DNA from: Psychrobacter cryohalolentis K5
Lineage (GTDB): Bacteria > Pseudomonadota > Gammaproteobacteria > Pseudomonadales > Moraxellaceae
Length of the DNA: 32,000 nt
Assembly (NCBI RefSeq): GCF_000013905.1
Contig: NC_007969.1
Span: 870,001-902,000, forward strand
Direction: 5' to 3'
Part shown: positions 10,140 through 31,247 of the stretch, in pieces
Position numbering within the stretch: the first letter of the stretch is position 1
Layout of the letters: each line of letters begins with the position of its first letter
Notes under the pieces: model-generated
What the model was told of the DNA's origin: nothing
What the model saw: the letters and a program-made list of their open reading frames with translations, nothing else
Database searches by the model: none
Program-made: the position numbers and the translations under genes

Positions 10140-10251
10140 TTTTGGTCAAATCTTAAATGCTTTGAAGCTTTACAATTATTGTTTAAATAGAAGCCCCGTA
10201 TCGTCATGAACTGACCCCCATAAGTTGGACACAACTTTTGGGGGTTATTTT

Positions 10252-10770
10252 ATGAAGTATGACATCGACTTTAAACTAGGGGTGATAGCCTATTATCAAC
10301 AAGGACATTCAGGCCTTGCTACCGCAAAGCATTTTAATATTAATGATAAAGATGTTTTTAAGTGGGTAAACCAGTATTTAAAAGACGGTATACTTGCAAT
10401 CAAACCTAAAACTAGCAAAGCCATCTACAGTAGCGAGTTCAAGCTTCAAGTCCTGACTACAATGGCAGGTGAAGGTTTAAGTCAATCGCAAGCCGCCTTG
10501 AGGTTTAACATTAGCTCACCTGTGCTGATTAGTGTATGGCGCACAGCCTATGCCCGTCATGGTATGCTAGGCTTAACTGCCAAAGCTAAAGGACGACCCA
10601 CTGTGAAGCACCCTTATCTCACTGACAAACCTGATCATGAAAAGAGTATAGAAGAGATCAAACGCGAGAATGAGTATCTACGCGCGGAGAACGCCTATTT
10701 AAAAAAGCTCGATGCCTTGCTCAAAGAGAGGAAAGCCAATCAGACAAAGCAAGGCTCGTCAAAGGACTAA
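10252..10770 (+). CDS. IS3-family transposase OrfA (HTH domains plus leucine zipper)
   Basis: ATG at 10252 follows a GGGGG run. Two HTH-like segments, and the C-terminal coiled coil IEEIKRENEYLRAENAYLKKLDALL is typical of IS3 OrfA. Confidence 0.9.
   Translation: MKYDIDFKLGVIAYYQQGHSGLATAKHFNINDKDVFKWVNQYLKDGILAIKPKTSKAIYSSEFKLQVLTTMAGEGLSQSQAALRFNISSPVLISVWRTAYARHGMLGLTAKAKGRPTVKHPYLTDKPDHEKSIEEIKRENEYLRAENAYLKKLDALLKERKANQTKQGSSKD
10701..10755 (+). promoter_or_regulatory. Programmed -1 ribosomal frameshift signal of the IS
   Basis: A_AAA_AAG heptamer (10701-10707) in the orfA frame, then a 6-nt spacer. An 8-bp stem follows: GCCTTGCT (10714-10721) pairs with AGCAAGGC (10748-10755). Confidence 0.8.
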
Positions 10771-11597
10771 GAGATCAGCATCCGCTAGCTTTACTATTAC
10801 TCATTGCAGATATAGCAAGAAGCAGCTTTTACTATCATGTGCATGCATTAAAAGCTGATGATAAGTATGCCGATCTTAAACAGCGTATCAGTGACATCTA
10901 TCATTACCATAAAGGTCGATATGGCTATCGTAGAATCACTCAAACGCTTAAGAACGAAGGAATAAGATACAACCACAAGCTCATCGCACGGCTTATGAAC
11001 GAGCTTAAACTTACCGCGAGAATCAGACGACAGAAGTATCGATCCTATAAAGGTCAGTGTGGCGTCATTGCCAAGAATAGAGTCAAACGCAGGTTCAGAG
11101 CGAAAGCGCCCAATCGCAGGTGGTTTACTGACATCACAGAGTTTAAAGTCGGTGATGAGAAGTTGTATCTGTCTCCTATACTAGACTGCTTCAACAATGA
11201 GATCATCAGTTATACGCTCTCAAGACGACCCGTATATGACTTGGTGAAACAGATGCTAGATAGTGCACTTAAGGGCATACCTACAAAGCGCAAGGAGACA
11301 CTGACGCTGCATTCAGATCAAGGGTGGCACTATCAGATAAAACCGTTTGCGACAACGCTTGAAACGCATAAAATTAAACAGAGTATGAGTAGAAAAGGCA
11401 ACTGCTTAGACAATGCGCTGATGGAGAGCTTCTTCGGTACGCTAAAATGTGAAACTATTTATATTGAAAAGCCATCGAGTATTGAGGCTTTAGAGAAACA
11501 GATTCATAACTTTATGCTCTACTACAATCATGAGAGAATTCAGATGAAACTAAAAGGACTAAGCCCTGTACAATACAGAACTCAGTCCTTGATTTAA
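10701..11597 (+). CDS. IS3-family transposase OrfB (DDE/rve catalytic domain), expressed as an OrfAB fusion by -1 frameshift
   Basis: The -1 frame is open from the slippery site; I translated 10701-10850 with no stops, reading ...LRDQHPLALLLLIADIARSSFYYH.... DDE signature present: WFTDITEF, LHSDQGWHYQ, SRKGNCLDNALMESFFGTLKCE. The first in-frame GTG is at 10839. Confidence 0.9.
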   Translation, partial: KKARCLAQREESQSDKARLVKGLRDQHPLALLLLIADIARSSFYYHVHALKADDKYADLKQRISDIYHYHKGRYGYRRITQTLKNEGIRYNHKLIARLMNELKLTARIRRQKYRSYKGQCGVIAKNRVKRRFRAKAPNRRWFTDITEFKVGDEKLYLSPILDCFNNEIISYTLSRRPVYDLVKQMLDSALKGIPTKRKETLTLHSDQGWHYQIKPFATTLETHKIKQSMSRKGNCLDNALMESFFGTLKCETIYIEKPSSIEALEKQIHNFMLYYNHERIQMKLKGLSPVQYRTQSLI

Positions 11598-14473: not shown

Positions 14474-14512
14474 AAAAAAAGCCGTTATCATGGATTTGAT
14501 AACGGCTTTTTT
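14474..14512. terminator. Bidirectional rho-independent terminator between the hydrolase gene and the C-C lyase-like gene
   Basis: GCCGTTATC (14481-14489) / GATAACGGC (14498-14506) form a perfect stem, flanked by A7 on the left and T6 on the right. Confidence 0.8.
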
Positions 14513-14538: not shown

Positions 14539-15627
14539 CTATAAGCGCGCTGTATAGTCGTTATTGCCATCATTAATGGTGCCAAAAACGTTAGCTCTAT
14601 TGACGATTTCGGTTGCCCAAGCACGATGGGTAGCAGGCTCTAGCATAGTATTGTTATATTTAAAGACCGCTTTTGCCTCGCTATGTAATATCGCCTGTGC
14701 CTCATCTAAAGTGCTAAGCGGTACGCAGTATGCTTGCTGTACCAAGGCAATCTGACTTGGATGAATAACGGTTTTTCCGACCAAGCCCAAGCTGACATCA
14801 CGCGTCAACTCTTGCATAAATAACGTAGGCTCATCCAAATACTCAAACACCGGCGCCGACAGATAAAAGCCATGGGGCACAAAACAGCCAAGCAGCTGGT
14901 AGGCTAGTGTACCAACAGGTGTATCATAGACAAGGCTATTCTTAGGACGGCGCAAACGCAGTGCTGCAAATAAATCATTACCACCAATACGCAAAGCAAA
15001 TACCGGCTGGCTAAAAGCTTCTTTGAAACCAATCGCCAGCTCTTGATTATGATGAGGATTAAACAACGCTGCCGTCTCAAGCGTTGGCATTAATAGCATG
15101 TCAGTACTAAGATTCTGGCATGCCATGCGCCAATTAGATAGACTGTACATATCGACTTTTGGCATCACAAAACCGTCAATCAAATCAATATGGGTAAAGC
15201 CCGATAACTGCTCTAACATGGCAGGATGGCGCGGACGTACAAATACCAACGGACGCGTTGGCTGCTCAGTCTGTATCTTGGTTTGTTGTGTTTCAGCTTG
15301 CTGTATCGGCTCATTGATACTATCGACGTGCGTTGCCCACGTATACAGCAGCGTCTGCAAGCGCTCAAGTGCCAACTCAACATCATTGTGGCTGACCGCA
15401 TCTTCTAGACAGATGATAATACTATTAATCGTCGGTAATTTATCACGCTTGATCACTTGCCAGATATCTTGGCGCGTCGCTGGCATATATAAGCTCGCTC
15501 CCAACTGATACGGATGATGCATGTTAGGTTTGAGCATAGCATGACGCTCAGTAATCAGATGCGCGTAAGACTGGGTGTTTTGATAAAGGTGGGACTCGTT
15601 TTTTGGCATATCTGACATAATGGGCAT
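14539..15627 (-). CDS. HpcH/CitE-like TIM-barrel C-C lyase (Ter-associated type)
   Basis: CitE/HpcH-like motifs: SLYMPATR, IIICLEDAV, RIGGNDLFAAL, GKTVIHPSQI. Last gene of the HAD, PRTase-like, lyase operon. Has a Q/T-rich internal insertion. Confidence 0.8.
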   Translation of the reverse strand: MPIMSDMPKNESHLYQNTQSYAHLITERHAMLKPNMHHPYQLGASLYMPATRQDIWQVIKRDKLPTINSIIICLEDAVSHNDVELALERLQTLLYTWATHVDSINEPIQQAETQQTKIQTEQPTRPLVFVRPRHPAMLEQLSGFTHIDLIDGFVMPKVDMYSLSNWRMACQNLSTDMLLMPTLETAALFNPHHNQELAIGFKEAFSQPVFALRIGGNDLFAALRLRRPKNSLVYDTPVGTLAYQLLGCFVPHGFYLSAPVFEYLDEPTLFMQELTRDVSLGLVGKTVIHPSQIALVQQAYCVPLSTLDEAQAILHSEAKAVFKYNNTMLEPATHRAWATEIVNRANVFGTINDGNNDYTARL

Positions 15628-15695
15628 CGTAAATAGTGGTAAATGAATGGGGCTAAAAGTATGGTTTCAAGATTAGGTAGAAAGATAAGGAGTTA

Positions 15696-16877
15696 TTAAT
15701 CGTCTGTAGCGCGCTGCTTAATAAGGGTAATCGCTTGATAAGGCAGTATTTTATCACCTAGTACGCTAATAGCGATATGTCGCTGTGTACATAAATGCCT
15801 TAATAATATAGTGTCGGGGTGCTCAGCGCTCGCTAACAAAATACGTTCAGGGTCGCGGCGTAGTATCGCGCGTGTCGCCTCAGCAATGGTCGGTTTAATA
15901 CGATTACGATTGCTGATATTGTATTCTGCTGCCAGCTTATCGACTAAGTCGGCCGTTTGATAGCGAGGTTGCTTATGTGTTGGCAAGCATTTCAAAGGTG
16001 TGTTTAATATACGCCTTGTCGCATCGATACAATCAATAAAGGCCAGACTATGATCTGCACTGATCAAATTATCATAAAAGACACTGCGATGCAGCCCCAA
16101 TTCCGGCTCAGTATATAAACTGCGTGATATAAGCCCTGATACAGTACTATTTAATAAACCTGACGGAATCAACCAGTCATCGATACTAGCAGCCAGCCAA
16201 GCAACACCAGCCGGATCAGCAAGGGTCAGTAGCGGTATAACATCCTGACCTTGATGGAAAATATTGGCAAAGTTAGGGTGGTTAGGATCGGAAAATGCTT
16301 TTAGACTATGCGCCAGTTCTTGATAAATCGCCCCTTTACCTGTCCAACCATCCACAAATACAATCGGGCTATGAGGATGATTATTTAATATCATCTTTAA
16401 AGCAACCGGATCAAGACCACGATCTCGTATAATACTGACGCCATAATGCACACTTGGTAGAGAGTAGCTGCTATTGGCAGTTGCTAATGCGCGTTGTAAC
16501 AGTACGCCTATTGGTAAACCGGCACGCACAAGACTGACTAAAATTAACGGGCGCTCATTATTGAAGTTTGACTGAAAAACTTGCTGTAGCGTATGGGCCA
16601 AATTGGTAATATCAGTTGCTGCTCTTACTTTTCCCTGCTCTAACGCCTCAATATATAGCTGCTCATGCATGGCACTTGGCGCGTCTTCCAAAGTCAGCAT
16701 ATCAGAATAATGACGCTGCCCACTTTGAATCAGTGCTTCTTTTTGACTGACAGGCACATCAGCAACGGCATCTTTATCAACGATATTGAGCAGCACAGTG
16801 ACATCGCTAGCAAGATAGCTGCCTGAGCCATATTGTGATAAATCGGCTGTTTTAATATTAGAATGGATTGAAGTCAT
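15696..16877 (-). CDS. PRTase-like protein of the Ter-associated family often annotated 'StiP'
   Basis: 393 aa. The PRPP-loop-like IVFVDGWTGKGAI is preceded by LILVSLVRAGLPIG. The separate C-terminal ~100-aa domain is reported in the literature as PELOTA-like RNA-binding. Context is with the HAD and CitE-like genes. Confidence 0.7.
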   Translation of the reverse strand: MTSIHSNIKTADLSQYGSGSYLASDVTVLLNIVDKDAVADVPVSQKEALIQSGQRHYSDMLTLEDAPSAMHEQLYIEALEQGKVRAATDITNLAHTLQQVFQSNFNNERPLILVSLVRAGLPIGVLLQRALATANSSYSLPSVHYGVSIIRDRGLDPVALKMILNNHPHSPIVFVDGWTGKGAIYQELAHSLKAFSDPNHPNFANIFHQGQDVIPLLTLADPAGVAWLAASIDDWLIPSGLLNSTVSGLISRSLYTEPELGLHRSVFYDNLISADHSLAFIDCIDATRRILNTPLKCLPTHKQPRYQTADLVDKLAAEYNISNRNRIKPTIAEATRAILRRDPERILLASAEHPDTILLRHLCTQRHIAISVLGDKILPYQAITLIKQRATDD

Positions 16878-16958
16878 AGTAGAAATAGTTGTACTCGTTT
16901 GATGACGGTTTAATAATAGATTAATAGCAGAATATCATTTAATAAAAGGTAGCGCTCA

Positions 16959-17765
16959 TCATTTAGCTGCAAATTTCTCATGTAGCTGTCCATGATTGGG
17001 CATGCCGTACCAGTCAAGTAATTGCAGAAATGGCAGATCTGCCAGACTGTCACCAAAACCGAAGCTTGGGCGCTGATGATCCAAATGCTGCTCCAACAAA
17101 AATTGTACCGCATGACGTTTATGAATAGCATGCGGCAATATTGCTAAATTATTAGCATTCACATGCACATAAAAAATCTCATCAAAATCTGGTATGAGCG
17201 TTGGTAATTGTATGGCTAACTCTGCCAATGCTTGATGGTCTTTTTGTGTGTGTTTGATCGCTATATAAATGGTCATCTCGCTATCGATAAAAGTATCTTT
17301 ATGCGGGGTGAGCTTTAAGTCGTTATGTACGTTATTGCAGCCATTCACCCACTCAGTCAGCTGACTGAGCTTATCTTGTACTGGAGCAAGCGCGTTATAC
17401 ATATGCTGCTGCCACGTGCTTAGTAGCTCACCATCAGACGCTAAAATGACCGCGCCATGGGTCAATACTTGCCAGCTATTAAAAGGCAGTTTGACGCGTT
17501 TAATTTCTTGACGATCACGTGCTGTGACAGCTATCAATTCAGTACTGGCAAATAGCCAATTAAAAAAGACCGCTTGGCGCTGACTCATAAAGCTTAACGG
17601 CTCACCTTGTTTATTGATGGTGGCGCAAACCAAATTTTCAGGTTCAGTAGTGGGTAATTCCCATGCATCAATTTTACGCTGAGTTTGAAAGAGCGTATCG
17701 TCCAAATCCATTAGCGCATAAGGTTTTACAATATTTAAGTTCGGTTGGAAAAATGGGGAGGTCAT
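16959..17765 (-). CDS. HAD-superfamily phosphatase (Ter-associated)
   Basis: Motif I LMDLDDTLF (DxDxT), motif II VTARD, motif IV GFGDSLADL. The ATG at 17765 (MTSPFF) is preferred over the track's TTG at 17777. Confidence 0.8.
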   Translation of the reverse strand: MTSPFFQPNLNIVKPYALMDLDDTLFQTQRKIDAWELPTTEPENLVCATINKQGEPLSFMSQRQAVFFNWLFASTELIAVTARDRQEIKRVKLPFNSWQVLTHGAVILASDGELLSTWQQHMYNALAPVQDKLSQLTEWVNGCNNVHNDLKLTPHKDTFIDSEMTIYIAIKHTQKDHQALAELAIQLPTLIPDFDEIFYVHVNANNLAILPHAIHKRHAVQFLLEQHLDHQRPSFGFGDSLADLPFLQLLDWYGMPNHGQLHEKFAAK

Positions 17766-18169
17766 GACGTTTTCCAAAGATAAAAATGATGATAAGACTG
17801 TTTATAGATGGCTTGGATACGAATATGTAAGGGAGGTGCAGCGCTGTTTTTTAAAACTGAGCATTACCTATTTATCAGACTTTAGCCAAATGCAGACAGT
17901 ATAACGATAATCATAAAAAAGGTCAGAATAAATCGGTAATAAAAGTGCAGAATTATCGCAAGAGGATTGGACGTAACTCATTTGGAGTTAGCATATAAAT
18001 ATAATAAACTCAGAAAATTGAGTAACCAAACTTTCCAAGTTTATTAAAGGGTGATTATGCAGACGGCAGGATAATACTAGGTTTCTTGTGATAGCGACTA
18101 TAGACTCAGCAACAATCACTGTCATATGTTTATACTATCATTTAAATAACAAAGAAATATTTGAATATC

Positions 18170-19141
18170 CTATCCATATATTTCTTCTAACCTTAGGCAA
18201 GAAACCAAGCGTCCTTCCCATTCACGTAGCTCAGGCTCAATTTCGCTACATATTGGTTTGGCATAGGGGCAGCGTTTATGAAGTGCGCAGCCACTTGGCG
18301 GATTAAGCGGACTAGGTAATTCGCCTTGTAGAGTCAGCTCTTTTTTATGACCCGTCACTGAAGGCGCTGCTGAGAGTAAAGCGATGGTATAAGGGTGTTT
18401 AGGATCATTATAAATAGCATCTTTAGCACCGTGCTCAACGGCCTTGCCTAAATACATGACCATCACGTCATCTGCTACGTGGCGTACGACAGAAAGGTTA
18501 TGCGAGATAAAGACATAGGCAGTATGATATTCATCTTGTAAATCCATAAATAGATTCAGTACTTGCGCCTGAATAGAGACGTCAAGTGCTGACGTTGGCT
18601 CATCAGCGACGACAATTTTAGGGTTGAGCATCATGGCACGGGCAAGAGCAATACGTTGGCGCTGACCGCCAGAAAACATATGCGGATAGCGACCGGTATG
18701 CTCAGGACGCAAACCAACGTGCTTCATCATTGCATGGACTTTGGTGCGTTTTTCTTCTTTGCTCAGCGTGGTATGAATGTCTAACGGTTCTGTGAGCTGA
18801 AAACCGATAGTATGACGTGGATTAAGACTGCCATAAGGGTTTTGGAATACCATCTGAATCTCAGTACGCAAGTTTTTAAGCGCACTTCTACTATAACTCG
18901 TAGTTGCCTCATCGTTAATAAATAACTCGCCACTGGTAGGTTCTTCTATCAAGGTAAGCTGGCGCGCCAAAGTAGATTTGCCACATCCTGACTCACCAAC
19001 GACTGCGAGAGTTTTCCCTGCTTCTAGCTCAAATGAGATGCCATTTAATGCCTTAACAAACGCTTTGCCTTTTCCTAAGCCTAGAGACACTTGATAGTGC
19101 TTATGTAAGTTATCTGCCTTTAAGACGATTTTATTACTCAT
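18170..19141 (-). CDS. dppF: Dipeptide ABC transporter ATP-binding protein DppF
   Basis: Walker [10 protein letters not shown], signature FSGGQRQR, Walker [13 protein letters not shown], and an oligopeptide-type C-terminal Cys-rich tail. Overlaps dppD by 4 nt. Confidence 0.9.
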
Positions 19142-20199
19142 ATTTCAGACTCCATCGTAGCGGTTTGAGTAGTCCGAGTAGGATGTTCGGGAAGGGTGGC
19201 GTGAATACAGCGGACTTCGCCATTTGGGGTTGTTAAGATAGGTGGTGGCACCTCACAAGCCGGCTCTTTATAGGGACAGCGAGGAGAGAGCAGACAGCCT
19301 GTAGGCCTGTCATATTGGCTTGGCACCACACCTGGTAAGCTATTTAATCTATCTTGTCCAACAGCCAGTTCAGGAATCGCTTGCAGTAGGGCTTCGGTAT
19401 AAGGGTGCGCAGGTTTTTGGAATATCTCTGGCACTGTACTGGTCTCGACCACTTGACCGGCATACATGACAGCGACATCACGAGCGTTTTGTGCGACTAA
19501 GCCCAAGTCATGAGTGATGAGCACCATTGCCATTTGCTTTTCACGTTGCAGGCGACTGAGTAAATCCATGATTTGAGCCTGAACGGTAACGTCGAGAGCG
19601 GTCGTCGGCTCATCAGCGATAAGCAGTTTTGGCTCGCAAGCCAGTGCCATCGCAATCATGACCCGTTGACTCATACCACCTGAAAGTTGGTGCGGATAGA
19701 CACGTAGGCGATTCTTAGCATCTGGCATCTCAACCAGCTCTAATAACTCTAACAGACGCTGCCGTACTGCTGCGCCGCGCAAGCCAAGATGGGTAGTTAA
19801 TACTTCTCCCATTTGCATCTCGACCGTAAAGCTTGGATTCAGGCATGACATGGCGTTTTGAAATATCATCGAGATATCTTTGCCGATAATCTTGCGCTTT
19901 TGTTTTGCTGGCATGGTGAGGAGATTCTTGTCATCAAAGTTAAGACGATCAGCAACGACAGTGGCAGAAGAGGGTAATAAACCCATCAGTGCCATCATAG
20001 TGACCGATTTACCAGAGCCTGATTCACCGACAACCGCGACGACTTCTCCTTGTTTTATTTTTAAAGAGACATCATCGACCGCACGGAATGCTCGTGCTCC
20101 TTCTCCAAAAGTCACCGATAGATGCTCAATATCGAGGAGTAATGGGTTGTCTGTGGCAAGGTTATTTGCTATTGGGCTATTTACTTGAGAGTCGTTCAT
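19138..20199 (-). CDS. dppD: Dipeptide ABC transporter ATP-binding protein DppD
   Basis: Walker A GESGSGKS, signature LSGGMSQR, Walker [13 protein letters not shown]. Position in the operon. Confidence 0.9.
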
Positions 20200-21113
20200 T
20201 AAGATACCTGCTTCAATTTTGGATCTAAGGCATCACGCAGACCGTCACCCGTTAGATTGATGGACAATGCGGCTAAGAAAATCGCCACACCGGGCCAAAT
20301 CGCTAACCACACATTGCTCTGGATATATTGGCGAGCAGTACCTAGCATCGCACCCCACTCAGCATCAGGGGGTTGAACACCGAAACCTAAGAAACCAATC
20401 GCGCCGGCTTCCAAAATAGCAGTAGAGAAAATCATGGTCGCTTGGACGATTAATGGCGCCATACAATTGGGTAATATCGTGATAAATAATAATCTTAAGA
20501 CGCCTGCACCCATGACCTGTGAAGCAATAAAATACTCACGTTGCAGCTCAACCATTGCTGTTGCGCGGGTCAACCTAATAAAAGGCGGCGTACATACCAA
20601 GGCAATAGTAATGATGGTGTTGGTCATCGAAGGCCCTAAGATAGCGGCAATGATAATGGCGAGCAGCAAGCTTGGATAAGACATCAAGATATCATTCACT
20701 AGCATGACCGCTTTGCCCCAAACCTTGGGCCAAAAGGCAGCGCTTAGTCCTAACGATACGCCCACAATCATCGCTATCGAAGTGGCGCTGATACCGATGA
20801 ATAATGAATAACGTGCGCCGTGCATGACGCGCGAGAGCGTATCACGACCGGCATCATCGGTGCCCAAAAAGAACATCGAATCACCGCCATTAAAGAAGGA
20901 GGGCGGCAATTGCTCTTTACCGGTGAATAATTCATAAGGGTCATAAGGGGCAATGGTAGGGGCCAAGATTGCGACGATGACCATCAGCATCAAGACTATA
21001 AAACCCAGTACCGCGCCTTTATTTCGGCAAAAGGTGTATAAAAACAGCTGCCAAGAAGTCGGCGGCTTAGGCGCAACCGGAGCAATGTCAGAAGGAACTA
21101 CAGAAGGCTTCAT
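20199..21113 (-). CDS. dppC: Dipeptide ABC transporter permease DppC
   Basis: Colinear with E. coli DppC ([53 protein letters not shown]). AAGGA RBS at 21121-21125. Confidence 0.9.
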
Positions 21114-21348
21114 TGGATATTCCTTTAGTGAATCAGACCTTGTTTTACTCCACTGGCTTGCTTACTTTATTAGGATAAGTCGCTTATGGTTTCAGCTAAC
21201 TTAGCATGCGCTTATCTTCTGTAAGCTGAGTAATGCAAACTTAGGGATACAAGATCTTTATGAGCACTATGGGTAATTATTAAAAACTATAAATAGCAAT
21301 TGTCGATACATTAATAATGCATCAAATGGGCTTCACCCTAACAATAGA

Positions 21349-22365
21349 CTATGAAGAATGGCGAATTCTAGGATTAATAAATCCATATAAAATATCGATC
21401 ATTAAGCTCACCAGAATCAGAGCAGTAGCGACCAATAAAATACCATTTTGTACAATGGGATAATCACGTGTAAAGAAACCATCTAATAACCAGTTGCCGA
21501 CACCGGGCCAACTAAAAATAGTCTCAGTGATAATGGCACCAGCCAGCAATGTTGCCATCTGTAATCCCACTACAGTAACCACGGTAATGAGCGCATTACG
21601 CATCACGTGAATTAAAATCACACGTTTTGGTGATAGACCTTTGGCTCTTGCAGTACGCACATAATCTTCATCTAACACTTCAAGCATCGCCGAACGTGTC
21701 ATACGAGCAATCATAGCTAGAGGAATAGTAGATAGGGCAACCGAGGGCAAGATGAAATGTTTTACAACGTTCCAAAAGGCGCCGGGCTCACCAGAGCTTA
21801 AAGAACCTAGTAGCCAAGACCCGTATAAAGGTTTGACGTCTAGGAACTGCGCGACAGAGATAACGCCAGAGACCGGTAGTAGACCTAGATAGTGGGCGAA
21901 AATACCCGTTAGGATAGGACCAAGTAAATAGATCGGCATAGAGTAGCCGGCAAGTGCGCCAGACATTAATGTATAGTCCAGCCAAGTACCACGGCGTAAG
22001 GCAGCTAGGATACCCAGACTAATACCAACGATACTCGCTATCGTAATCGCGCAAAGTGCAAGCTCTAATGTCGGCACAAAATGCGCAAAAAAGTCCTGCA
22101 ATATCGGTGTGCGGGTACGAAAGGATTCACCAAAGTTACCTTGCAGTATCCCAGTGAGATAATCCCAGTATTGTACGGGTAACGGTTTATCTAGACCAAG
22201 GCGGGCTAAAGCCTGCGCATGTAGCTCAGGATCAACCATGCGCTCTCCCATCATAATCTCAACCGCATCGCCAGGTACGAGGCGAATAAGAATAAAAGTC
22301 GATAGGGTTAAGCCGATATAGACAGGAACTAAGATTAAAATCCGGCGTAGAATATAAAGTAGCAT
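21349..22365 (-). CDS. dppB: Dipeptide ABC transporter permease DppB
   Basis: From MLLYILRRILILVP it is colinear with E. coli DppB and gives the same 339-aa length (EDYVRTARAKGL, ETIFSWPGVGNWL, NPRIRH). The track start at 22422 is an extension. Confidence 0.9.
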   Translation of the reverse strand: MLLYILRRILILVPVYIGLTLSTFILIRLVPGDAVEIMMGERMVDPELHAQALARLGLDKPLPVQYWDYLTGILQGNFGESFRTRTPILQDFFAHFVPTLELALCAITIASIVGISLGILAALRRGTWLDYTLMSGALAGYSMPIYLLGPILTGIFAHYLGLLPVSGVISVAQFLDVKPLYGSWLLGSLSSGEPGAFWNVVKHFILPSVALSTIPLAMIARMTRSAMLEVLDEDYVRTARAKGLSPKRVILIHVMRNALITVVTVVGLQMATLLAGAIITETIFSWPGVGNWLLDGFFTRDYPIVQNGILLVATALILVSLMIDILYGFINPRIRHSS

Positions 22366-22508
22366 AGCTCGGCTCGATTTTATAAAAGTGGCTTTTACCA
22401 GATATAGCTCAGGCTCAGACAAAGAGGGCTGGAACAGAATCTCTGAACCAGCCGCAAACGTATATAAAGCAATGACTATAAAGTAAAAGGCGTCACTAGG
22501 GTTTGTTA

Positions 22509-22538
22509 GGTACTGGTATTGAATCTAATACCAGTACC
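22509..22538 (-). promoter_or_regulatory. Perfect 12-bp stem-loop in the dppA-dppB spacer (candidate mRNA-stabilising or attenuating hairpin, REP-like)
   Basis: GGTACTGGTATT-GAATCT-AATACCAGTACC, about 40 nt downstream of the dppA stop. No U-tract follows on the coding strand. A third partial arm CACTGGTATT lies at 22548-22557. Confidence 0.6.
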
Positions 22539-22577
22539 GAATGTAGCACTGGTATTAGCTAATGCTATTTAATAGCT

Positions 22578-24221
22578 TTATTCAATATCAACGCCATCAA
22601 AGCGAATGGAGCCGAGTGGGCTAATTTTGTAGTCTTTCACATTAGGGGTGGTCAATACCGTCACAACTGAGTTGGCAACTGTGGTCCAAGGCAATTGGTC
22701 TTTAAAGATAACCTGAGCCTGCTTGTAATTAGCAATACGCTCATCTTGGTTGGTATTTGCACGCGCATCCATGACCAGCTTATCAAACTCTGCATTACAC
22801 CAGCGCGAGTAGTTGTTACCATTGACGGCATCACAAGATAGTAAAACACCTAACCAGTTATCAGGATCGCCATTATCGCCTGTCCAACCGGCTAGGATCG
22901 CTTCAGGTTCACCTTTGCCAGCACGCTTTAGATACTCGCCCCACTCATAAGTCACGAGCTTGGCTTTGACCCCAATTTTAGCCCAATCAGATTGAATCAT
23001 TTCTGCCATGAGCTTAGCATTGGGATTATAAGGACGCTGAACGGGCATATACCATAAGTCGATTTCTAAATCTTTAGCACCCGCTTCAGCCAGTAGGGCT
23101 TTGGCTTTTTCGATATCGTAAGGCGCATCTTTGATCTCATCGTTATAGCCCCACTGCGTTGGTGGCATTGGGTTGCTTGCTTTGATACCAGAACCTTGAT
23201 ATACCGCATTGATGATGGCGTCTTTATTGATTGCCATATCGAGAGCGCGGCGAACATTGACATCTTTTAGATCGGGTTTTTCAGTATTATAGCCTAAATA
23301 ACCGACGTTAAAGCCTGCATCATCTAGTACGTTTGCTTTGCCAGATTTTTTGGCAGAGTCCACTTCAGATGGATTAGCGTAAGCCGAGACATTACATTCG
23401 CCTGCTTGTACTTTTTGGGCACGAACCGCTGAGTCTTTGGTGATGACAAAGACGAGGTTATCGATATGAATGTTGTCTTTGTTCCAGTAGTCAGGATTTT
23501 TGGTATAACGAATCTGCGCATCTTTTTGATACGAAGTAAAGACGAAAGGTCCGGTACCGACTGGTTTGGTATTTAGATCAGCTGCATTGCCAGCGTCTTG
23601 TAACTGCTTGGCATACTCTGCAGAATGCACATAGGCGAACGGCATTGCTAGGTTTTGTAAGAATGGCGCGTTGGTCTCAGTCAGAGTGATTTTGACCGTA
23701 TAATCATCGACTTTTTCTACTTTGTCGATAATATCAGGTAAGCCCATGCCTACTGAATATGGGAATTCAGCTGGATAGTCTTTATTAAAAGCAAAGCCTG
23801 TATCGGTAAGACGTTCGATGGTAAAGATAATGTCATCAGCATTGAAGTCACGAGTTGGGGTGAAATAATCGGTCTTGCCGAATTTGACGCCTTTACGTAG
23901 ATTGAGCGTATAAGTCTTACCGTCTTCGCTGATTTCCCAGCTTTCGGCTAAGCCTGGCTCGATTTCGGTTTCGCCACGTTTAAACTGTACGATACCATTA
24001 AAAATAGGATAAGCACTGGCATCAAAGTCAGTACCTGCCGTATATTGCGCAGGGTCAAAGCCGGCAGGGCTACCTTCTGAACAGTAAATTAAGGTCTTAG
24101 CGGCTTTGGCATCACTACCGGCATCTGCCGTTTTATCCGCAGTTTTATTGTCGCCGCTACAGGCGCTGACGCCTAGCGTTAAGGCTGCTAATAAGGTGAG
24201 CTTGAAAAATGGAGTTTGCAC
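22578..24221 (-). CDS. dppA: Dipeptide-binding periplasmic protein DppA, lipoprotein form
   Basis: Colinear with E. coli DppA (KTLIYCSEGSP.GF, GLAE.WE.SEDGKTYT, MPVQRPYNPNA..MAEMIQ.DWAKIGV.AK.VTYEWGEYLKRA, GWTGDNGDPDN). GTG start with AGGA upstream. The signal peptide ends in lipobox VSAC. Confidence 0.92.
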   Translation of the reverse strand: MQTPFFKLTLLAALTLGVSACSGDNKTADKTADAGSDAKAAKTLIYCSEGSPAGFDPAQYTAGTDFDASAYPIFNGIVQFKRGETEIEPGLAESWEISEDGKTYTLNLRKGVKFGKTDYFTPTRDFNADDIIFTIERLTDTGFAFNKDYPAEFPYSVGMGLPDIIDKVEKVDDYTVKITLTETNAPFLQNLAMPFAYVHSAEYAKQLQDAGNAADLNTKPVGTGPFVFTSYQKDAQIRYTKNPDYWNKDNIHIDNLVFVITKDSAVRAQKVQAGECNVSAYANPSEVDSAKKSGKANVLDDAGFNVGYLGYNTEKPDLKDVNVRRALDMAINKDAIINAVYQGSGIKASNPMPPTQWGYNDEIKDAPYDIEKAKALLAEAGAKDLEIDLWYMPVQRPYNPNAKLMAEMIQSDWAKIGVKAKLVTYEWGEYLKRAGKGEPEAILAGWTGDNGDPDNWLGVLLSCDAVNGNNYSRWCNAEFDKLVMDARANTNQDERIANYKQAQVIFKDQLPWTTVANSVVTVLTTPNVKDYKISPLGSIRFDGVDIE

Positions 24222-24697: not shown

Positions 24698-25975
24698 CTA
24701 TTTAGGACTCACCATCAACACATTATCCAAACCTTTCCACATGGTATCCACACTATCAGCCGACGTTTCCACACACAATACAATCAAATCCCACTCATTT
24801 GGCTCAACGTTATAAGCAAAGTTGGTCATACCAAGGCCATAATTATCATGAAAGCTTAACATCGTGCCAATACCTCTACCAAGTGCAATCGGTGAGCGTG
24901 TCAATGCGCTAAAATTCACCGTATTATTGCTGTTATCTAAATTCGTATACTGCTCAAGCCATTCCGCCAATAAGAAGGGCAACCAGACAAATTCATTACT
25001 GCCCAGTACCAATATTTTTTGTGGCAATTGAGCGTTATTAAATGCGTTTTGGCCATCAAAACTTGCAAATGCAGTTTGGAAACTTGCTAGATAATCAGCA
25101 AAGCCATTCGTGCTATCTAGCGTTGGAAAGCGCCCCCAATTACCGGTATTGCCCAAAGGTTGACTACCAGCTTCGGTCGTATCAACCGATGGCATAATGA
25201 TAGGCTCAGGGTTGGGCGCATCAGTCCATTTCCAAGCGCCAGATAGTAAATGATGGCGGTGAAAATCAATGTTTGGGAGACGGGTGGCAATCGTATCATT
25301 GGCGTTAGCATCAGACTCACTTTGATTCTGATTTAGAGACCAATCAACCAAGGTTGTGAGATGCACTTGCTCTAGTTGGGTCAACCCAGCTTCACGTAAT
25401 GCTGTGACGACATTAACGCAAGTATTACCCGTTGATGCTTCATCATCGACCATAATTAGCGTTTTACTGGCAAGTAGTTGCGCTTGCGTCATTTTATCGG
25501 CACTTTGATAAATCAGATGCTGACTGGCATGACTGTGGTCTTCGCTAAAAGTGGTCAATAAAGAATCGCTACTGTTGTCATCATGCTGGGCATGACGAGT
25601 AGAATTCAGCAGTAACGCTTGTGGATAGCGCGTTTGTAGCGCTTGGTGCACACCGGCAGATAAGCCAACCGCCGTCTCTGCCATACCTATGACCAAAATC
25701 GGCTCAGGCAAATCATCAGGTACTAAGTTTGCCAAATCAGTAAAGGCGTCACGCATGATGCTTGGTGCCACCGGAATATGACGACCTAACACTTTTGAGA
25801 CAAACAAAAACGCCCGTTTTGGGTTGATACGTTGAGCAAAATCAAGCAAATCTTCTAGCTGATAATGGCTACTTTCTTTAAGGTCGTTATTACCACTAGC
25901 AGCGTTGGTCTGATAGGTCAGATCAAGCGTACCGCGAGGTAAGGTGATGGTCGTGTTGTGTTGCTTATTTGGCAT
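24698..25975 (-). CDS. Type-I phosphoribosyltransferase-domain protein with a long C-terminal extension (Ter-associated PRTase_2/TRSP-like)
   Basis: Classic PRPP-binding loop TLIMVDDEASTGNT. Upstream ILVIGMAETAVGLSAG. About 200-aa C-terminal domain of unknown function. Strong GGAAGGAA RBS. Confidence 0.8.
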   Translation of the reverse strand: MPNKQHNTTITLPRGTLDLTYQTNAASGNNDLKESSHYQLEDLLDFAQRINPKRAFLFVSKVLGRHIPVAPSIMRDAFTDLANLVPDDLPEPILVIGMAETAVGLSAGVHQALQTRYPQALLLNSTRHAQHDDNSSDSLLTTFSEDHSHASQHLIYQSADKMTQAQLLASKTLIMVDDEASTGNTCVNVVTALREAGLTQLEQVHLTTLVDWSLNQNQSESDANANDTIATRLPNIDFHRHHLLSGAWKWTDAPNPEPIIMPSVDTTEAGSQPLGNTGNWGRFPTLDSTNGFADYLASFQTAFASFDGQNAFNNAQLPQKILVLGSNEFVWLPFLLAEWLEQYTNLDNSNNTVNFSALTRSPIALGRGIGTMLSFHDNYGLGMTNFAYNVEPNEWDLIVLCVETSADSVDTMWKGLDNVLMVSPK

Positions 25976-26149: not shown

Positions 26150-26575
26150 TTAACCATTGTATTGCATAGGTATAGAAAACAAGCTTAGAATAATATTTAA
26201 GCCAAAATTAAACGCTGGTGCAAGTACAAGACTTAGATAGGTATGACCAAAATAGTAAGTAAGAGCCAACAAGATAGGTATTGCAATAATATCTATCGCA
26301 ATCTCATATTTAGGAAAAACACTTTGCTGAATGTTCTCTGACATGATTACTATCGCGGCAAACACTAGCAATAAAGGCAAGATTATTATTGCTATACCTA
26401 TAAACAATGCTAAACCACCAAACATCATGAAAAAACCAAATATGATTGATAGTCCATTCATAATGGATGAACTTGTTTCAATACTATGGGAAAGATTTCT
26501 CGCGATGTCAAAATAAGCATTAGGGAGAGCTTTTAACTCATATACTAAAAAATCATAAATAGAATTAATAATCAT
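26150..26575 (-). CDS. Small hypothetical integral membrane protein (141 aa, about 3-4 TM helices)
   Basis: The ORF fills the gap between the ATP-grasp and PRTase genes on the same strand. Long hydrophobic stretches (LSIIFGFFMMFGGLALFIGIAIIILPLLLVFAAIVIM; IDIIAIPILLALTYYF). Markedly AT-rich. No family recognised. Confidence 0.55.
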   Translation of the reverse strand: MIINSIYDFLVYELKALPNAYFDIARNLSHSIETSSSIMNGLSIIFGFFMMFGGLALFIGIAIIILPLLLVFAAIVIMSENIQQSVFPKYEIAIDIIAIPILLALTYYFGHTYLSLVLAPAFNFGLNIILSLFSIPMQYNG

Positions 26576-26614: not shown

Positions 26615-27781
26615 TTAAACTTCTGAAGCATCTTCTTCAATCTTTACACTCACCATAATAGAACGTACTTGGCACGGTGTAATTTGCTGTGCGATATCTG
26701 CCAGTTTCGGCTTCTTACTTAAACCGAGCCAATAAGCAAAACCAACTTGAGTTAGATCTACGCCGCTATGAGTGGTGTAATCAATACCACCAGAGGGGCG
26801 ACTATTAATCTCAAGCACACGATGCTGACCATTATCATCCGCTTTAGTCTGGACACTAACAATACCATCACAGCCGAACGTTTTTATCAGTGGAATGACC
26901 ACATCCATGACCGATTGCTCATAACCAATATGTTGAATTTTCCCCGTTTTATAACGGGTAATAGCAGCCAACACTTCGCCGTATTCACAGACGACATCGA
27001 TAGAGTATTCTTGTCCTGATAAATAAGGCATTAATAGCATCGGAATAGGGCGCTCATGCACCATAAGACTGTTGGTATAAGCATTGATAAATTGCGCGGT
27101 ATTGATTTTCTTCTCTTCGGTAAAGTATAGATGCTCAAAACTGTCGTATGGCTCACCTTCTTCTTTACCTGTCTCTTTAACTTTACCTAAGCGCCAAAAT
27201 CCTTGGGCAAAAATCCCCGTCACTGGTTTGACACATAAAGGCTGATGACCATGGGTGGCAAGTAACGCCTCAAGCTCTGCGACAGTATCAAAGCGCCATG
27301 CATCTGCGACAGGGATATCATGCTCATGGCACTGCTGCATAAAGGCAAACTTATCATCGATGGATTCCAGTGCTGAAACGCTGGTCGCACCTGTCAATAA
27401 ACGGATACCTGCTGCTGCAAATTTTTCGCGATGAGCTTCGTAATCAATGCCATTGCGTCCAGTAAGCAACACTTTCACGTTGTTTTTCTGAGCTTGTTCT
27501 AACACAAATTGCCAACGTGGCATCAATGGCTCAACAGATTCGAGCACTGCTTGTTCATCGCTATCTGCGGTGCTAATAGAAGGCTCGCGGTAAATGATGT
27601 CGGCAAATTCAAAAATCTCAGGTCTATTATGACGATGTGAGGCAACGATATGAAAGGGCATGCTAGAGTGAGCTTTTAGGGTTTGCAGGCTAGCTAACAT
27701 ATCACGCTGGCTTGACTGACCTTCAGCCAACCAAGCAGCGCTTAACTTTGTATGATGACTATTGTTAACAGGGTTATCCAT
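26615..27781 (-). CDS. ATP-grasp ligase (Ter-associated ATP-grasp type)
   Basis: ATP-grasp core: CVKPVTGIFAQGFW, YLSGQEYSIDVV, and the Mg/ATP loop HRVLEINSRPSGG. Divergent from the TerD-fold gene. Confidence 0.8.
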   Translation of the reverse strand: MDNPVNNSHHTKLSAAWLAEGQSSQRDMLASLQTLKAHSSMPFHIVASHRHNRPEIFEFADIIYREPSISTADSDEQAVLESVEPLMPRWQFVLEQAQKNNVKVLLTGRNGIDYEAHREKFAAAGIRLLTGATSVSALESIDDKFAFMQQCHEHDIPVADAWRFDTVAELEALLATHGHQPLCVKPVTGIFAQGFWRLGKVKETGKEEGEPYDSFEHLYFTEEKKINTAQFINAYTNSLMVHERPIPMLLMPYLSGQEYSIDVVCEYGEVLAAITRYKTGKIQHIGYEQSVMDVVIPLIKTFGCDGIVSVQTKADDNGQHRVLEINSRPSGGIDYTTHSGVDLTQVGFAYWLGLSKKPKLADIAQQITPCQVRSIMVSVKIEEDASEV

Positions 27782-28087: not shown

Positions 28088-29374
28088 ATGATGAGTCAAC
28101 CTCAAGCTTTAATTGCAGGTGCTAACGCACCGCTGCCAACGGATAATATTAGCATTCGTATTTTAAGCCAAAATGCCATCGACTGTGCGGCTTATCGCCT
28201 GACGACTGAAGGTAAAGTACGCGGCGATGGCGATATGATATTTTATGGGCAGACGCGTAGCGATGATGGTAGCGTGAGCTTTCGCGGTCATGACAGTGAT
28301 GGATTTTTTGATATCAATCTACCTGCACAGCCAGCAACTATTGAAAAGATTGCGTTAGCATTTTCTAGTGCGCAGACGTTGGCTCAAGTCGGTGATGTGG
28401 ATATTCAAGTACTACAAGGCAGTCAAGTGTTGATAACTTGCCAATTAAGTGCTGTTGGACGTAATGAAAAAGCTATCATCTTAGCTGAATGTTATCGTCG
28501 GCAGGGCAATTGGAAGTTCCGATTTATCGCTCAAGGTTTTGAAGGTGGCTTAAAACCTTTATCTGAGCATTTCGGTGTAGAGATTGCCGATGAAGCACCA
28601 GCTCAAAGCCCTATACAAAATCAGTCACAAGGGCAAGCTCAGCCTATTAATACGCAGCGACCAATCAATACGCAAAAAGCTAGTAGTGCGCCTCAGACAA
28701 CTACGCCACCGCCGATTCCTGCTGGCTCTACCAATCCTTCAATCAACCTAAGTAAAATTACTTTAACCAAAAATCAATCTAGTATCAATCTCAAGAAACG
28801 TGATGATTTTGGCAAAATATCGGTCAACCTAGACTGGAACCAACGTCCAGATGTCAGCAAGCAAGCACCCAAAAAAGGGCTGCTTGGCGATTTATTTAAG
28901 CAGCATAAAGCTGGTGGAATTGATCTCGATGTTGGTGCGATGATTCATCTGAAAAATGGTGAAAAAACGCTTATTCAAGCGTTGGGAAGTCGTTTTGGTA
29001 GCCTACAGTCAGCGCCATACGTTCTATTGCGTGCCGATGATAGAACAGGACAGGTAAGCGGCGGTGAATGGCTAGATATCAATGGGCAACAGTGGTCACA
29101 GATTGAAGAAGTATTTATCTTTGCTTTCATTTACGAAGGCGCACCAAATTGGGCGCAAACTGATGGGGTAGTGACTATTCATGTACCCGACCAGCCACCG
29201 ATTGAAACGCGTTTGACAGAAGGTACAGGTAACTTACCGATGTGCGCTATTGCGCGTCTGGTCAATCAGCAAGGCAGTATCAACGTTGAACGTATCAACC
29301 AATACTTTAAAGGACATCAAGAGATGGACAAAGCCTTTAATTGGGGCTTTAGCTGGAAACGTGGCAGTAAGTAG
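28088..29374 (+). CDS. Two-domain TerD-fold protein (TerA-like tellurite/stress-resistance family)
   Basis: N-domain: GKVRGDGDMIFYGQ..DGSVSF and ECYRRQGNWKFRFIAQGFEGGL match the TerD core. A Q/P-rich linker follows. C-domain: INLKK...ISVNLDWN, GGIDLDVGAM, ADDRTGQVSGGE are TerD Ca-site-like motifs. Confidence 0.85.
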   Translation: MMSQPQALIAGANAPLPTDNISIRILSQNAIDCAAYRLTTEGKVRGDGDMIFYGQTRSDDGSVSFRGHDSDGFFDINLPAQPATIEKIALAFSSAQTLAQVGDVDIQVLQGSQVLITCQLSAVGRNEKAIILAECYRRQGNWKFRFIAQGFEGGLKPLSEHFGVEIADEAPAQSPIQNQSQGQAQPINTQRPINTQKASSAPQTTTPPPIPAGSTNPSINLSKITLTKNQSSINLKKRDDFGKISVNLDWNQRPDVSKQAPKKGLLGDLFKQHKAGGIDLDVGAMIHLKNGEKTLIQALGSRFGSLQSAPYVLLRADDRTGQVSGGEWLDINGQQWSQIEEVFIFAFIYEGAPNWAQTDGVVTIHVPDQPPIETRLTEGTGNLPMCAIARLVNQQGSINVERINQYFKGHQEMDKAFNWGFSWKRGSK

Positions 29375-29498: not shown

Positions 29499-31247
29499 AT
29501 GTGGGAAATATTATCGCAGATGCTATCAAGAATGAGTATCATCATTACGATTGCTTATTTAATCACTAGACTGCCTATATTTAGAAAAATGATTTCCCAG
29601 CGAGTCGGAATAGGTGGTTTATTTGTTTTGATAATAATATTTGGTATGTTTGGAGTCATTGGTAATTATACGGCGCTTGTTGTAGAGCCGGGTAACCAAA
29701 AAGTCATATCCAATATATGGAATCCTACACTTCAATCAAACAATGCAGTAGCGGATACAAGAAATATCGGTATCATCATCGGTGGCTTTTTTGGTGGTCC
29801 AATAGTTGGCATAGGTGCTTCAGTTATTGCCGGTGCCCATCGTTTGCTGATGGGTGGTTTTATCAGTGGAGCCACTTTCTGGGTATCTATCTTAGGTGGC
29901 TGCTTTGCAGGATGGTTTGGATATAAATGGCGCGGAATGGGTCTAATTAAGCCAAGATATATGTTTCTTACCAGCATTATCATTTTAACGATTCAAATTT
30001 TAGCTATTCCAGTCTTAACTACCGATCATACTACGGCACTCAAATTAATTGCTTTTACAGGCCCACCCATTATCATCATCAACAGTGTTGGTATATGGAT
30101 TTGTGCGATGATTTTTTATAATGTAGTAGTAGAAGAGGATAGAACAAGAGCAAGTCAAACGGTCAAAACATTTTCAATTGCTGATCAAACCTTCTCGTTA
30201 TTCCGATCGGGTCTCAATGAAAACTCAGCTAAAAAAAGTACAAAAATTATTAAAAAATTAACTGCTGTAGAGCATGTAGCGATTACTAGAGGTATTCGTG
30301 AATTAGCTTATACTGGAACATTGAATAATCAAAAGAGAAATGAAGAAGAAGACCTTGCATCACGTAAGCTGGCTTTATCAACGGGAAAATCAGTATTAAA
30401 TGAGCCAAAGTCAAAATGGCTGTTTTCAAAGAAATCAAATAGTAGAGCTTCTGTAGTAGTGCCATTTTGTGTTCAGAATAAAACGATTGGAACCATTACT
30501 TTTTATTATGCAAGCTCATTACATATTACTGTCGTTGAAAAAGAACTGATTGAAGGTTTAGGCAAGCTTTTCTCAAATCAATTAGAGCTTGGTGAGATTG
30601 AACGTCATAATCAACTATTACAAAACGCAAAAATTGAGGCGTTACAATCGCAAATTCAACCCCATTTTTTATTTAATGCATTAAATACCATTGTAGCTTT
30701 ATGTAGAATCGATCCAATGCTAGCGCGAGATTTATTGCTACACTTATCTACTTATTTGCGAAATAACTTGTCAGGCATTGCTGATTTTTTGGTACCGGTA
30801 TACAAGGAAATGGAGAATGTACAAGCTTATTTGGCCATTGAACAAGCTCGTTTTCCAGATAAGTTTGTAGTCAATATAGAAGTAGCTCCTGATTTGATTG
30901 AGTGTCTTATTCCTCCATTTATCATTCAGCCTTTGGTCGAGAACGCAATAAAGCACGGTGGATTTAAAAAGATAGAAGCTAAAGGTGCAGTTCATATCGA
31001 GATTAAAAAAATATCAGAACTCTTAATTTTGATTAAAGTTTCTGATAATGGGATTGGCGTTGAGCTAAATCGAATAGTAGATCTAGGGGAACGTGTTGTA
31101 AAATCCTCTAAAGATGGAAGTGGCACCGCGTTATTCAATATAAAAGAGCGACTTACGGCACTGTACAGCCAAGATGTACGCTTTAATATAGACAGTGATG
31201 TTGGCAAAGGGACTTGTGTGTCGATTATATTGCCGGTTAAAACTTAG
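29499..31247 (+). CDS. LytS/BtsS-type sensor histidine kinase (5TM-LYT, GAF-like, His_kinase, HATPase)
   Basis: N-terminal polytopic region with GGFFGGP and GG-rich helices. LQSQIQPHFLFNALN is the His-box of the LytS family. ENAIKHG is the N-box. DNGIG and GSGTAL form the ATP lid. Confidence 0.88.
   Translation: MWEILSQMLSRMSIIITIAYLITRLPIFRKMISQRVGIGGLFVLIIIFGMFGVIGNYTALVVEPGNQKVISNIWNPTLQSNNAVADTRNIGIIIGGFFGGPIVGIGASVIAGAHRLLMGGFISGATFWVSILGGCFAGWFGYKWRGMGLIKPRYMFLTSIIILTIQILAIPVLTTDHTTALKLIAFTGPPIIIINSVGIWICAMIFYNVVVEEDRTRASQTVKTFSIADQTFSLFRSGLNENSAKKSTKIIKKLTAVEHVAITRGIRELAYTGTLNNQKRNEEEDLASRKLALSTGKSVLNEPKSKWLFSKKSNSRASVVVPFCVQNKTIGTITFYYASSLHITVVEKELIEGLGKLFSNQLELGEIERHNQLLQNAKIEALQSQIQPHFLFNALNTIVALCRIDPMLARDLLLHLSTYLRNNLSGIADFLVPVYKEMENVQAYLAIEQARFPDKFVVNIEVAPDLIECLIPPFIIQPLVENAIKHGGFKKIEAKGAVHIEIKKISELLILIKVSDNGIGVELNRIVDLGERVVKSSKDGSGTALFNIKERLTALYSQDVRFNIDSDVGKGTCVSIILPVKT

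Follow-up and report, generated by a model that had tools for sequence, protein, structure and literature searches.

In a 32000-nucleotide stretch of Psychrobacter cryohalolentis K5 DNA (contig NC_007969.1, positions 870001–902000; called the window below), three co-directional genes, encoding a HAD-type phosphatase, a protein of the StiP family and a TIM-barrel C-C lyase, are genes 3–5 of a five-gene, Ter-associated biosynthetic module. The explanation that best accounts for our observations taken together, and one that we consider probable, is that the trio is one part of this module, that the operon has been split in this lineage by a dppABCDF-like dipeptide transporter operon, and that the five enzymes would serve the nucleoside-like pathway proposed for them. 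Ter clusters are widespread on virulence and resistance plasmids and on many chromosomes, and they confer resistance to tellurite, colicins and phages. Such systems were already known from in-silico work, and the window adds no new one: the module, in the order ATP-grasp, PRTase_2-TRSP, HAD, StiP, lyase, was set out by Anantharaman, Iyer & Aravind (2012, Mol Biosyst 8:3142), according to the relevant passages of PMC11994780, PMC8115787 and PMC7824862.

A Ter-associated module in two parts

A previous interpretation, made from the letters of the DNA without database searches (the sequence-only reading), had proposed a co-directional trio, and the open reading frames (ORFs) bear it out, all three lying on the minus strand. 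The HAD-IIB-type phosphatase gene (16959–17777; Hydrolase_3 in Pfam, E 3.8e-5, 24 bits against a cut-off of 20.9) has a maximal ORF of 272 aa, and its likely start is the ATG at 17765, as in a GenBank record of identical sequence with 268 aa, rather than the TTG at 17777. It sits 81 nt upstream of the StiP gene (15696–16877), whose 393-aa product has an exact protein match in the Psychrobacter chromosome CP022043.2 and consists of a type I phosphoribosyltransferase (PRTase)-fold domain at about residues 19–284 (PF11202, formerly PRTase_1; E 8.9e-82) and a C-terminal PELOTA_1 domain at about residues 308–388 (PF15608; E 2.9e-23). The gene for the CitE/HpcH-like TIM-barrel C-C lyase (14539–15627; C-C_Bond_Lyase, PF15617, E 1e-97) has a maximal ORF of 362 aa and likely starts at the ATG at 15618, as in the identical 359-aa GenBank record, not at 15627. 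The motifs quoted earlier are readable in the translations and kept across the families: the HAD protein has DLDDT, VTARD and GDSLAD, the middle protein IVFVDGWTGKG, and the lyase CLEDAV, GGNDL and GKTVIHPSQI. The families named earlier for the trio, PRTase_1 (now named StiP), PELOTA_1 and C-C_Bond_Lyase, were all recovered by Pfam, at scores that chance could not give. A strong bidirectional terminator had been placed at 14474–14512; the hairpin is there, although its extent is 14475–14512. It is an intrinsic terminator with a 16-pair stem containing five G-C pairs and a 6-nt loop, and it closes both the trio and a convergent alpha/beta-hydrolase gene; because an A-run and a T-run flank the stem, it could act in both directions.

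The trio had also been described as the complementary half of a Ter module, and the other half lies in the same window. A PRTase_2 + TRSP phosphoribosyltransferase gene, module gene 2, occupies 24698–25975 on the minus strand (PF15609, E 1.4e-53; PF12500, E 3.9e-16), and a Ter-type ATP-grasp ligase gene (ATPgrasp_Ter), module gene 1, occupies 26615–27781 on the same strand (PF15632, E 5.2e-33). Divergent from the latter is a plus-strand gene for a TerA-like TerD-domain protein (28088–29374; PF02342, E 2e-27), the GenBank product of which is 427 aa from 28091, with an exact copy in CP022043.2. The full minus-strand order is thus ATPgrasp_Ter, a 141-aa ORF, PRTase_2 + TRSP, five Dpp-type genes, HAD, StiP, lyase and terminator. 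Set against the five-gene module as known from IncHI plasmids (next to terZABCDE), from the ter loci of E. coli O157 and Klebsiella and from Acinetobacter chromosomes, the window has the same families, the same order and the same association with TerD and TerC, but its five genes are not contiguous. The 6.9-kb dppABCDF segment interrupts the module between genes 2 and 3, a difference of layout and not of gene content. A 141-aa membrane ORF stands between genes 1 and 2, and TerC and short TerD paralogues have been displaced by lytS-lytT-dcuC in this lineage. No TerB, TerY-triad, PP2C or kinase genes were seen near the window module; the rearrangement and this depleted Ter neighbourhood are all that sets it apart from modules already described. 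In PADLOC the trio, the ATP-grasp protein, the TerD protein and the 141-aa ORF matched no defence system, and PRTase_2 had only weak matches, to retron-type PRTases.

The association extends well beyond Psychrobacter. In a scan of one genome per species we obtained at least 596 loci with a StiP relative, and the best 80 of these were annotated with hidden Markov models built from the Pfam-verified genes, partners being counted within 10 kb. HAD and lyase genes each accompanied StiP at 75 of the 80 loci, PRTase_2 at 73 and ATP-grasp at 50; TerD was present at 62, TerC and TerB at 38 each, and any Ter gene at 64, while a Ter gene or the ATP-grasp gene was found at 70. The aligned domains of neighbouring module genes are separated by median distances of only 23–47 nt. 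The Klebsiella IncHI1B and Pseudomonas aeruginosa megaplasmids carry the five genes without interruption next to terZABCDE. Acinetobacter soli shares this layout, within a full Ter cluster that includes the TerY-PP2C-kinase triad, and in one Vibrio and one Thiotrichaceae genome PRTase_2-HAD-StiP stands beside TerD/TerC/TerB, with the lyase in Vibrio only. The StiP family itself numbers 773 cluster representatives (E ≤ 1e-3) among 1.84 billion proteins, and natural fusions occur among the top 150 of these: 28 are PRTase_2(-TRSP)-StiP, eight HAD-StiP and one StiP-HAD.

StiP homologues are also carried by 2,574 PLSDB plasmids. Among 50,697 phage records there were three matches; homologues are found in the Acinetobacter jumbo phage vB_AbaM_ME3 (KU935715.1 / NC_041884.1, 209145–210197), where the annotation is ‘phosphoribosyl transferase’, and in a 15-kb human-faecal phage contig (MT836648.1, 7367–8275).

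The lyase and the HAD protein each have distant relatives in central metabolism, which might be taken to mean that the trio consists of ordinary housekeeping enzymes (a purine or pyrimidine salvage PRTase, a citrate lyase beta subunit and a sugar phosphatase) that are adjacent by chance. The C-terminal half of the lyase aligns with citrate lyase beta 3qll (E 3.8e-6) and malyl-CoA lyase 4l9y (E 8e-4), both distant PDB sequence matches, and the HAD protein has weak HAD-IIB/Cof matches (NCBIfam HAD-SF-IIB, 22.9 against a cut-off of 41.8). However, the equivalog scores in NCBIfam all fall far below their cut-offs: the HAD protein scores 28 bits against 137 for Cof, and the lyase scores 22 bits against 443 for citE and 42 against 375 for RipC, so it is neither a citrate lyase beta nor a RipC equivalog, whereas the families PF11202, PF15608 and PF15617 match at E 1e-23 to 1e-97. 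Moreover, the gene order is kept across phyla beside Ter genes, and the annotated ORFs of the window showed no gene for a citrate lyase alpha or gamma subunit. The assignments to ordinary citrate lyase, salvage PRTase and sugar phosphatase were rejected on the family scores and the cross-phylum Ter linkage, and we give such a chance grouping practically no credence. The sequence-only reading had itself allowed for ordinary subfamilies of this sort, and for genes never linked to TerD or ATP-grasp elsewhere; neither is what the family scores and the 80 loci returned.

The conserved residues of the two flanking enzymes are those expected of working catalysts. HAD motifs I–IV are all present in the window protein, and DxDxT, VTAR, the motif III Lys and GDSxxD are kept in at least 95% of 84 HAD homologues, a pattern consistent with an active phosphatase. 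The 77 lyase homologues conserve G-A-S-x-Y-x-P, C-x-E-D, PTLET, GGNDL and GKxxIHPxQ, and the window lyase shares with the CitE/malyl-CoA lyase/HpcH-HpaI superfamily the L-E-D, E-T and G-x-D metal and substrate motifs, plus IHPxQ, a set that fits a Mg-dependent C-C lyase or aldolase of the CitE/HpcH type. It differs from that superfamily in belonging to its own Pfam family, in a near-invariant Cys in C-L-E-D and in a low-complexity insert of about 40 residues. Classical CitE enzymes have D-L-E-D at the position of C-L-E-D; the Cys (window 15508–15520 region) is kept in at least 95% of the 77 homologues and, judging from this conservation, may be a family-specific active-site residue. The insert, a Gln/Thr/Glu-rich segment SINEPIQQAETQQTKIQTEQPT (window 14800–14960, residues about 70–110), lies in columns that are unconserved across the homologues and helps to account for the 362 aa of the window lyase, compared with about 293–320 aa in Acinetobacter, Klebsiella and Pseudomonas.

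The dpp operon between the two halves

The two halves of the module are held apart by a dppABCDF-like dipeptide ABC transporter operon of five genes (18170–24221, minus strand), which lies outside the ancestral module; it was recognised by Pfam and its best NCBIfam matches are DppA/B/C/D/F. Its insertion created an AT-rich spacer of 392 nt (17778–18169, minus strand) before the HAD gene, in which no terminator and only consensus-level promoter matches were detected. In blastn comparisons the 6.9-kb dpp segment is absent in seven of eight other Psychrobacter species loci, where PRTase_2 runs almost straight into HAD, and the context common to all the Psychrobacter compared is TerA-like, ATP-grasp, PRTase_2, HAD-StiP-lyase, enoyl-CoA hydratase and AcnB. 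In Psychrobacter arcticus 273-4, the StiP of which is 89% identical, an intact and contiguous TerD-TerC-TerD-AIM24-TerD / TerA-like / ATP-grasp-PRTase_2-HAD-StiP-lyase cluster occupies the same chromosomal context, and in Psychrobacter immobilis the PRTase_2|HAD junction is likewise uninterrupted. The insertion is common to the window lineage, DAB_AL43B and ANT_WB68. P. arcticus, with the operon intact, and the P. cryohalolentis-like lineage, with it split, are close relatives and provide a natural comparison.

The source of the inserted genes is suggested by CANMUI010000001.1, in which the module is uninterrupted and an orthologous dpp operon, with a DppA 80% identical, is found at a distance of about 60 kb, flanked by eutBC/GMC oxidoreductase genes on one side and a gene for an SSF transporter on the other; the DppA of the window shares 99% identity with P. 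cryohalolentis proteins. Neither repeats, direct or inverted, nor transposon scars were found flanking the dpp insertion. The simplest reading of these alignments is that a resident housekeeping dpp operon was relocated into the PRTase_2|HAD junction, and this reading is strengthened by the arrival in this Ter cluster of another, unrelated block, lytS-lytT-dcuC.

It might instead be supposed that dppABCDF was recruited into the module, importing a peptide or amino-acid precursor or a peptidyl-nucleoside, and that the 13-kb co-directional block is a single unit. The eleven genes from ATP-grasp to lyase are indeed co-directional with no detectable terminator at either junction, at least three Psychrobacter lineages retain the arrangement (DAB_AL43B, ANT_WB68 and that of the window), and ATP-grasp enzymes often ligate amino acids. 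However, the insertion is absent in P. arcticus, P. immobilis, seven of the eight other Psychrobacter species and every other phylum sampled; one genome with an uninterrupted module has the orthologous operon about 60 kb off, in the company of eutBC and SSF genes, the inserted genes best match ordinary DppA–F families, and the presence of lytS-lytT-dcuC in the same cluster points to tolerated rearrangement. We regard recruitment as highly improbable; the dpp rearrangement is probably lineage-specific and incidental.

After the relocation, transcription of the trio would depend either on read-through from dpp or on a new promoter in the 392-nt spacer. Read-through is possible because neither junction spacer (PRTase_2|dpp or dpp|HAD) contains a detectable terminator.

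Some variation in the block itself was noted. Between the window and ANT_WB68, PRTase_2 and dpp are 87% identical in blastn, compared with 77–78% for HAD-StiP-lyase, and the presence of dpp does not track StiP identity, PG1 (81%) being without it and ANT_WB68 (78%) having it. These figures hint at recombinational exchange of the PRTase_2-dpp block.

In three Chromatiaceae genomes (Thiobaca, Thiocystis) a different insertion, TerD-TerD-TerB (about 2.4 kb), interrupts this PRTase_2|HAD junction, and the junction is thus a recurrent breakpoint between an ‘ATP-grasp + PRTase_2’ half and a ‘HAD-StiP-lyase’ half. Moraxella boevrei DSM 14165 has HAD-StiP-lyase without PRTase_2, ATP-grasp or a Ter gene within 10 kb on either side. 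The solitary trio of M. boevrei and the broken junction of the Chromatiaceae together indicate that the half module is a real, separable unit, and the natural fusions and the recurrent PRTase_2|HAD breakpoint define which enzymes work together.

StiP and the proposed pathway

A first protein search with StiP returned only Psychrobacter sequences, at 79% identity or more, and was too shallow; a profile of diverse representatives was therefore used, and conservation was assessed in 141 of them aligned over at least 80% of the protein. The invariant residues of the PRTase domain include R118-A-G120, P122, H144, S148, D156, D176-G-W-T-G-K-G182, D234 and S251-R252, and correspond to the pyrophosphate (PPi) and phosphoribosyl pyrophosphate (PRPP) loops of PRTases; the invariant polar residues around the predicted active site also include E64, R151, D221 and H263. 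In the PELOTA domain K328, E333, R336 and R340-R341 are invariant; the profile match and the basic residues among these are what the analysis established for PELOTA_1, a putative RNA-binding domain.

The StiP sequence matched nothing in the PDB (phmmer) and no NCBIfam family. An AlphaFold2 model built from an 80-sequence alignment (predicted local distance difference test score 90.2, predicted template-modelling score 0.91) was compared with the PDB in Foldseek, and the top 50 matches were all type I PRTases (HGPRT, PRTFDC1, PyrR), with probabilities of about 1.0 and target-normalised template-modelling scores of 0.4–0.58. StiP thus shares with type I PRTases such as HGPRT, PyrR and OPRT a predicted core fold, a hydrophobic strand leading to an acidic residue, a T-G-K phosphate-binding turn and an R-A-G motif resembling the PPi loop. 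It differs from them in its low identity (about 12–16%), in having D176 followed by invariant G177-W178 where the canonical enzymes have two acidic residues, in a long N-terminal helical extension, in the extra motifs S251-R252, H263 and D275, and in the fused PELOTA_1 domain. Judged by conservation and predicted fold, the function of StiP is, across the family, PRTase-like and not proteolytic.

This bears on the name under which the protein is found in databases. The sequence-only reading had objected that nothing in the middle protein supports the label ‘cysteine protease’, and the objection is upheld by the lack of a conserved Cys and by the predicted type I PRTase fold. The names used by NCBI and Pfam go back to Reichert et al. 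(2013, Can J Microbiol 59:726), who, in the account given in PMC11994780, claimed protease activity for purified Acinetobacter baylyi StiP and described tellurite hypersensitivity and altered morphology on its deletion. The A. baylyi protein (ACIAD1960), namesake of the family, has the same PF11202 + PF15608 architecture as the window StiP, and Acinetobacter orthologues are 45–46% identical to it and occupy the same HAD-StiP-lyase position. A rival view, for which the activity, the phenotypes and the names speak, is that StiP is a true cysteine protease acting in cell morphology and stress survival, its PRTase-like features being incidental. Yet no conserved Cys column exists among the 141 representatives, three of which are Cys-free. 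The window residues Cys283, Cys297 and Cys363 are conserved in 1%, 4% and 11% of the sequences, and the Acinetobacter cysteines fall at alignment positions 142/225/255/265, with none in common with the window protein. Furthermore, no protease appeared among the top 50 Foldseek PDB matches listed, the confident model matching type I PRTases only; the sequence is similar to no solved structure; the invariant residues fit the PPi and PRPP loops; and the deletion phenotypes would be equally expected from loss of a pathway enzyme. A catalytic protease is, in our view, very unlikely, and the evidence assembled here is that the NCBI/Pfam name ‘cysteine protease StiP’ lacks family-wide support for a protein with a predicted PRTase fold.

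The best Cys column of the family, at window position 265 (Ser in the window), was considered as the site of a Cys/Ser nucleophile and rejected because Ala occupies it in 32% of sequences (Cys 72, 51%; Ala 45; Val 8; Thr 6; Gly 5; Ser 4).

The Aravind group has reportedly always treated StiP as a PRTase, and neither the evidence on the label nor the intact/split pair is therefore very surprising to a specialist. The pathway scheme given here follows Anantharaman, Iyer and Aravind in 2012 and Iyer et al. in 2021. In this scheme, which comprises activation on PRPP, dephosphorylation and C-C tailoring, the ATP-grasp enzyme would build or amidate a carboxylated base precursor, and PRTase_2, with its canonical PRPP loop, would couple the base to PRPP to give a nucleoside 5′-monophosphate, from which the HAD enzyme would strip the 5′-phosphate. 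StiP, by means of its single-Asp loop and the basic patch of its PELOTA domain, would carry out a second PRPP- or nucleotide-dependent step or hold an intermediate, and the Mg-dependent lyase would form or cleave a C-C bond, acting on a side chain of the oxo-acid or acyl type. The nucleoside-like product might then be sensed by TerD/TerB in a membrane stress or phage response. The scheme is a published in-silico hypothesis of a nucleoside-type pathway, as outlined in passages of PMC11994780 and PMC7824862, and not an independent inference of ours.

Several points weigh against our overall reading of a split module serving such a pathway. All the chemical steps assigned to the five module enzymes are inferred. 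In canonical type I PRTases the PRPP loop has two adjacent acidic residues followed by a T/S-G-x-T/S turn, whereas in the StiP loop, V-D176-G177-W-T-G-K-G, one Asp stands alone and the residue after it is Gly in all 141 sequences, so that catalysis by StiP is not assured. Cysteine protease activity was, as noted above, reported for the purified A. baylyi protein (Reichert et al. 2013, in PMC11994780). Finally, as regards transcription of the split operon, co-transcription across the dpp junctions is, from the sequence, no more than possible, and promoter-like matches, which turned up as often after shuffling, were given no weight.

Given its single acidic residue, StiP may be the catalyst of an unusual step, or else a binder; PRTase_2, the loop of which is canonical (LIMVDDEASTGNT), is the safer candidate for base activation. 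The binder option can be taken further, StiP being then a non-catalytic PRTase-fold sensor of ligand or RNA, comparable with PyrR and PurR, that binds PRPP, a pathway nucleotide or RNA (the last via PELOTA) and regulates or scaffolds the pathway. Besides the loop with its single acidic residue and invariant Gly, next door to a PRTase_2 with canonical DDE...STGNT, this would fit the occurrence of PyrR among the structural matches, the invariant basic cluster K328/R336/R340/R341 of PELOTA_1, and the frequent fusion to PRTase_2-TRSP, as of a regulatory or partner subunit. Nevertheless, more invariant polar residues surround the predicted active site than would be expected of a protein that only binds, the gene is kept in nearly every module, including the minimal PRTase_2-HAD-StiP versions, and no RNA element was detected in the window, a search of all 32 kb with Rfam at the gathering threshold returning no riboswitch or leader. 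A purely sensory StiP therefore seems to us unlikely. Bolder still is the idea that StiP is no second free-base PRTase but, through its degenerate single-Asp loop and the invariant basic face of its PELOTA domain (L7Ae/eRF1-like), acts on or senses RNA or an oligonucleotide-linked ribose; the Ter metabolite would then be a signal linked to RNA or derived from it, and the widely propagated name ‘cysteine protease’ would be wrong for the whole family; we mention it as a speculation to which we attach little probability.

Further insertions and neighbouring genes

The second inserted block begins within the window with a gene for a LytS-type histidine kinase (29499–31247, plus strand) and continues to its edge and beyond (29499–32000 in the window; locus L094, 11409–21284), lying between the TerA-like gene and TerD-AIM24-TerD-TerC-TerD. 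In CP022043.2 lytS is succeeded by lytT (a LytTR response regulator) and dcuC, and then, outside the window and 4.4 kb past the TerA-like gene, by TerD-AIM24-TerD-TerC-TerD. The block is absent in a metagenomic contig (L095) and in P. arcticus. With the dpp and lytS-lytT-dcuC insertions together, the Ter cluster of the window lineage has been cut into three pieces.

The ATP-grasp|PRTase_2 junction is a variable slot, as seen in the window (26150–26575) and in seven further loci (L011, L013, L017, L018, L093, L097 and L005). In the window it holds the hydrophobic 141-aa ORF (26150–26575, minus strand), which has no family match and was found by a local hidden Markov model in the window's own lineage only. 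In some Psychrobacter the slot holds a second TerA-like protein of about 410–440 aa, and in others an NYN-like protein (IAVLIDADNA, YGDWGN); P. immobilis has a TerD-Trypsin_2 fusion and a DnaJ-like protein there, the P. aeruginosa plasmids have a trypsin-like peptidase, and in locus L014 and P. arcticus the slot is empty.

Elsewhere in the window, a 129-aa ORF with no Pfam match (427–816, minus strand) lies upstream of TAXI-TRAP transporter genes. An IS3-family transposase (orfA HTH + orfB rve; 10225–11597) adjoins a BTP/AceI-like efflux gene, to the product of which one assembly gives 156 aa and another 196 aa. With blastn this segment of about 1.4 kb aligned to none of the eight other Psychrobacter species loci compared, and it is thus a lineage-specific insertion of the element. 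Where the window has the BTP gene and the IS3 element, P. arcticus has a gene with a SEFIR/TIR_2 domain between enoyl-CoA hydratase and AcnB (locus L096, 13515–14441), so that the surroundings of the Ter module are variable, with a defence-type domain among them.

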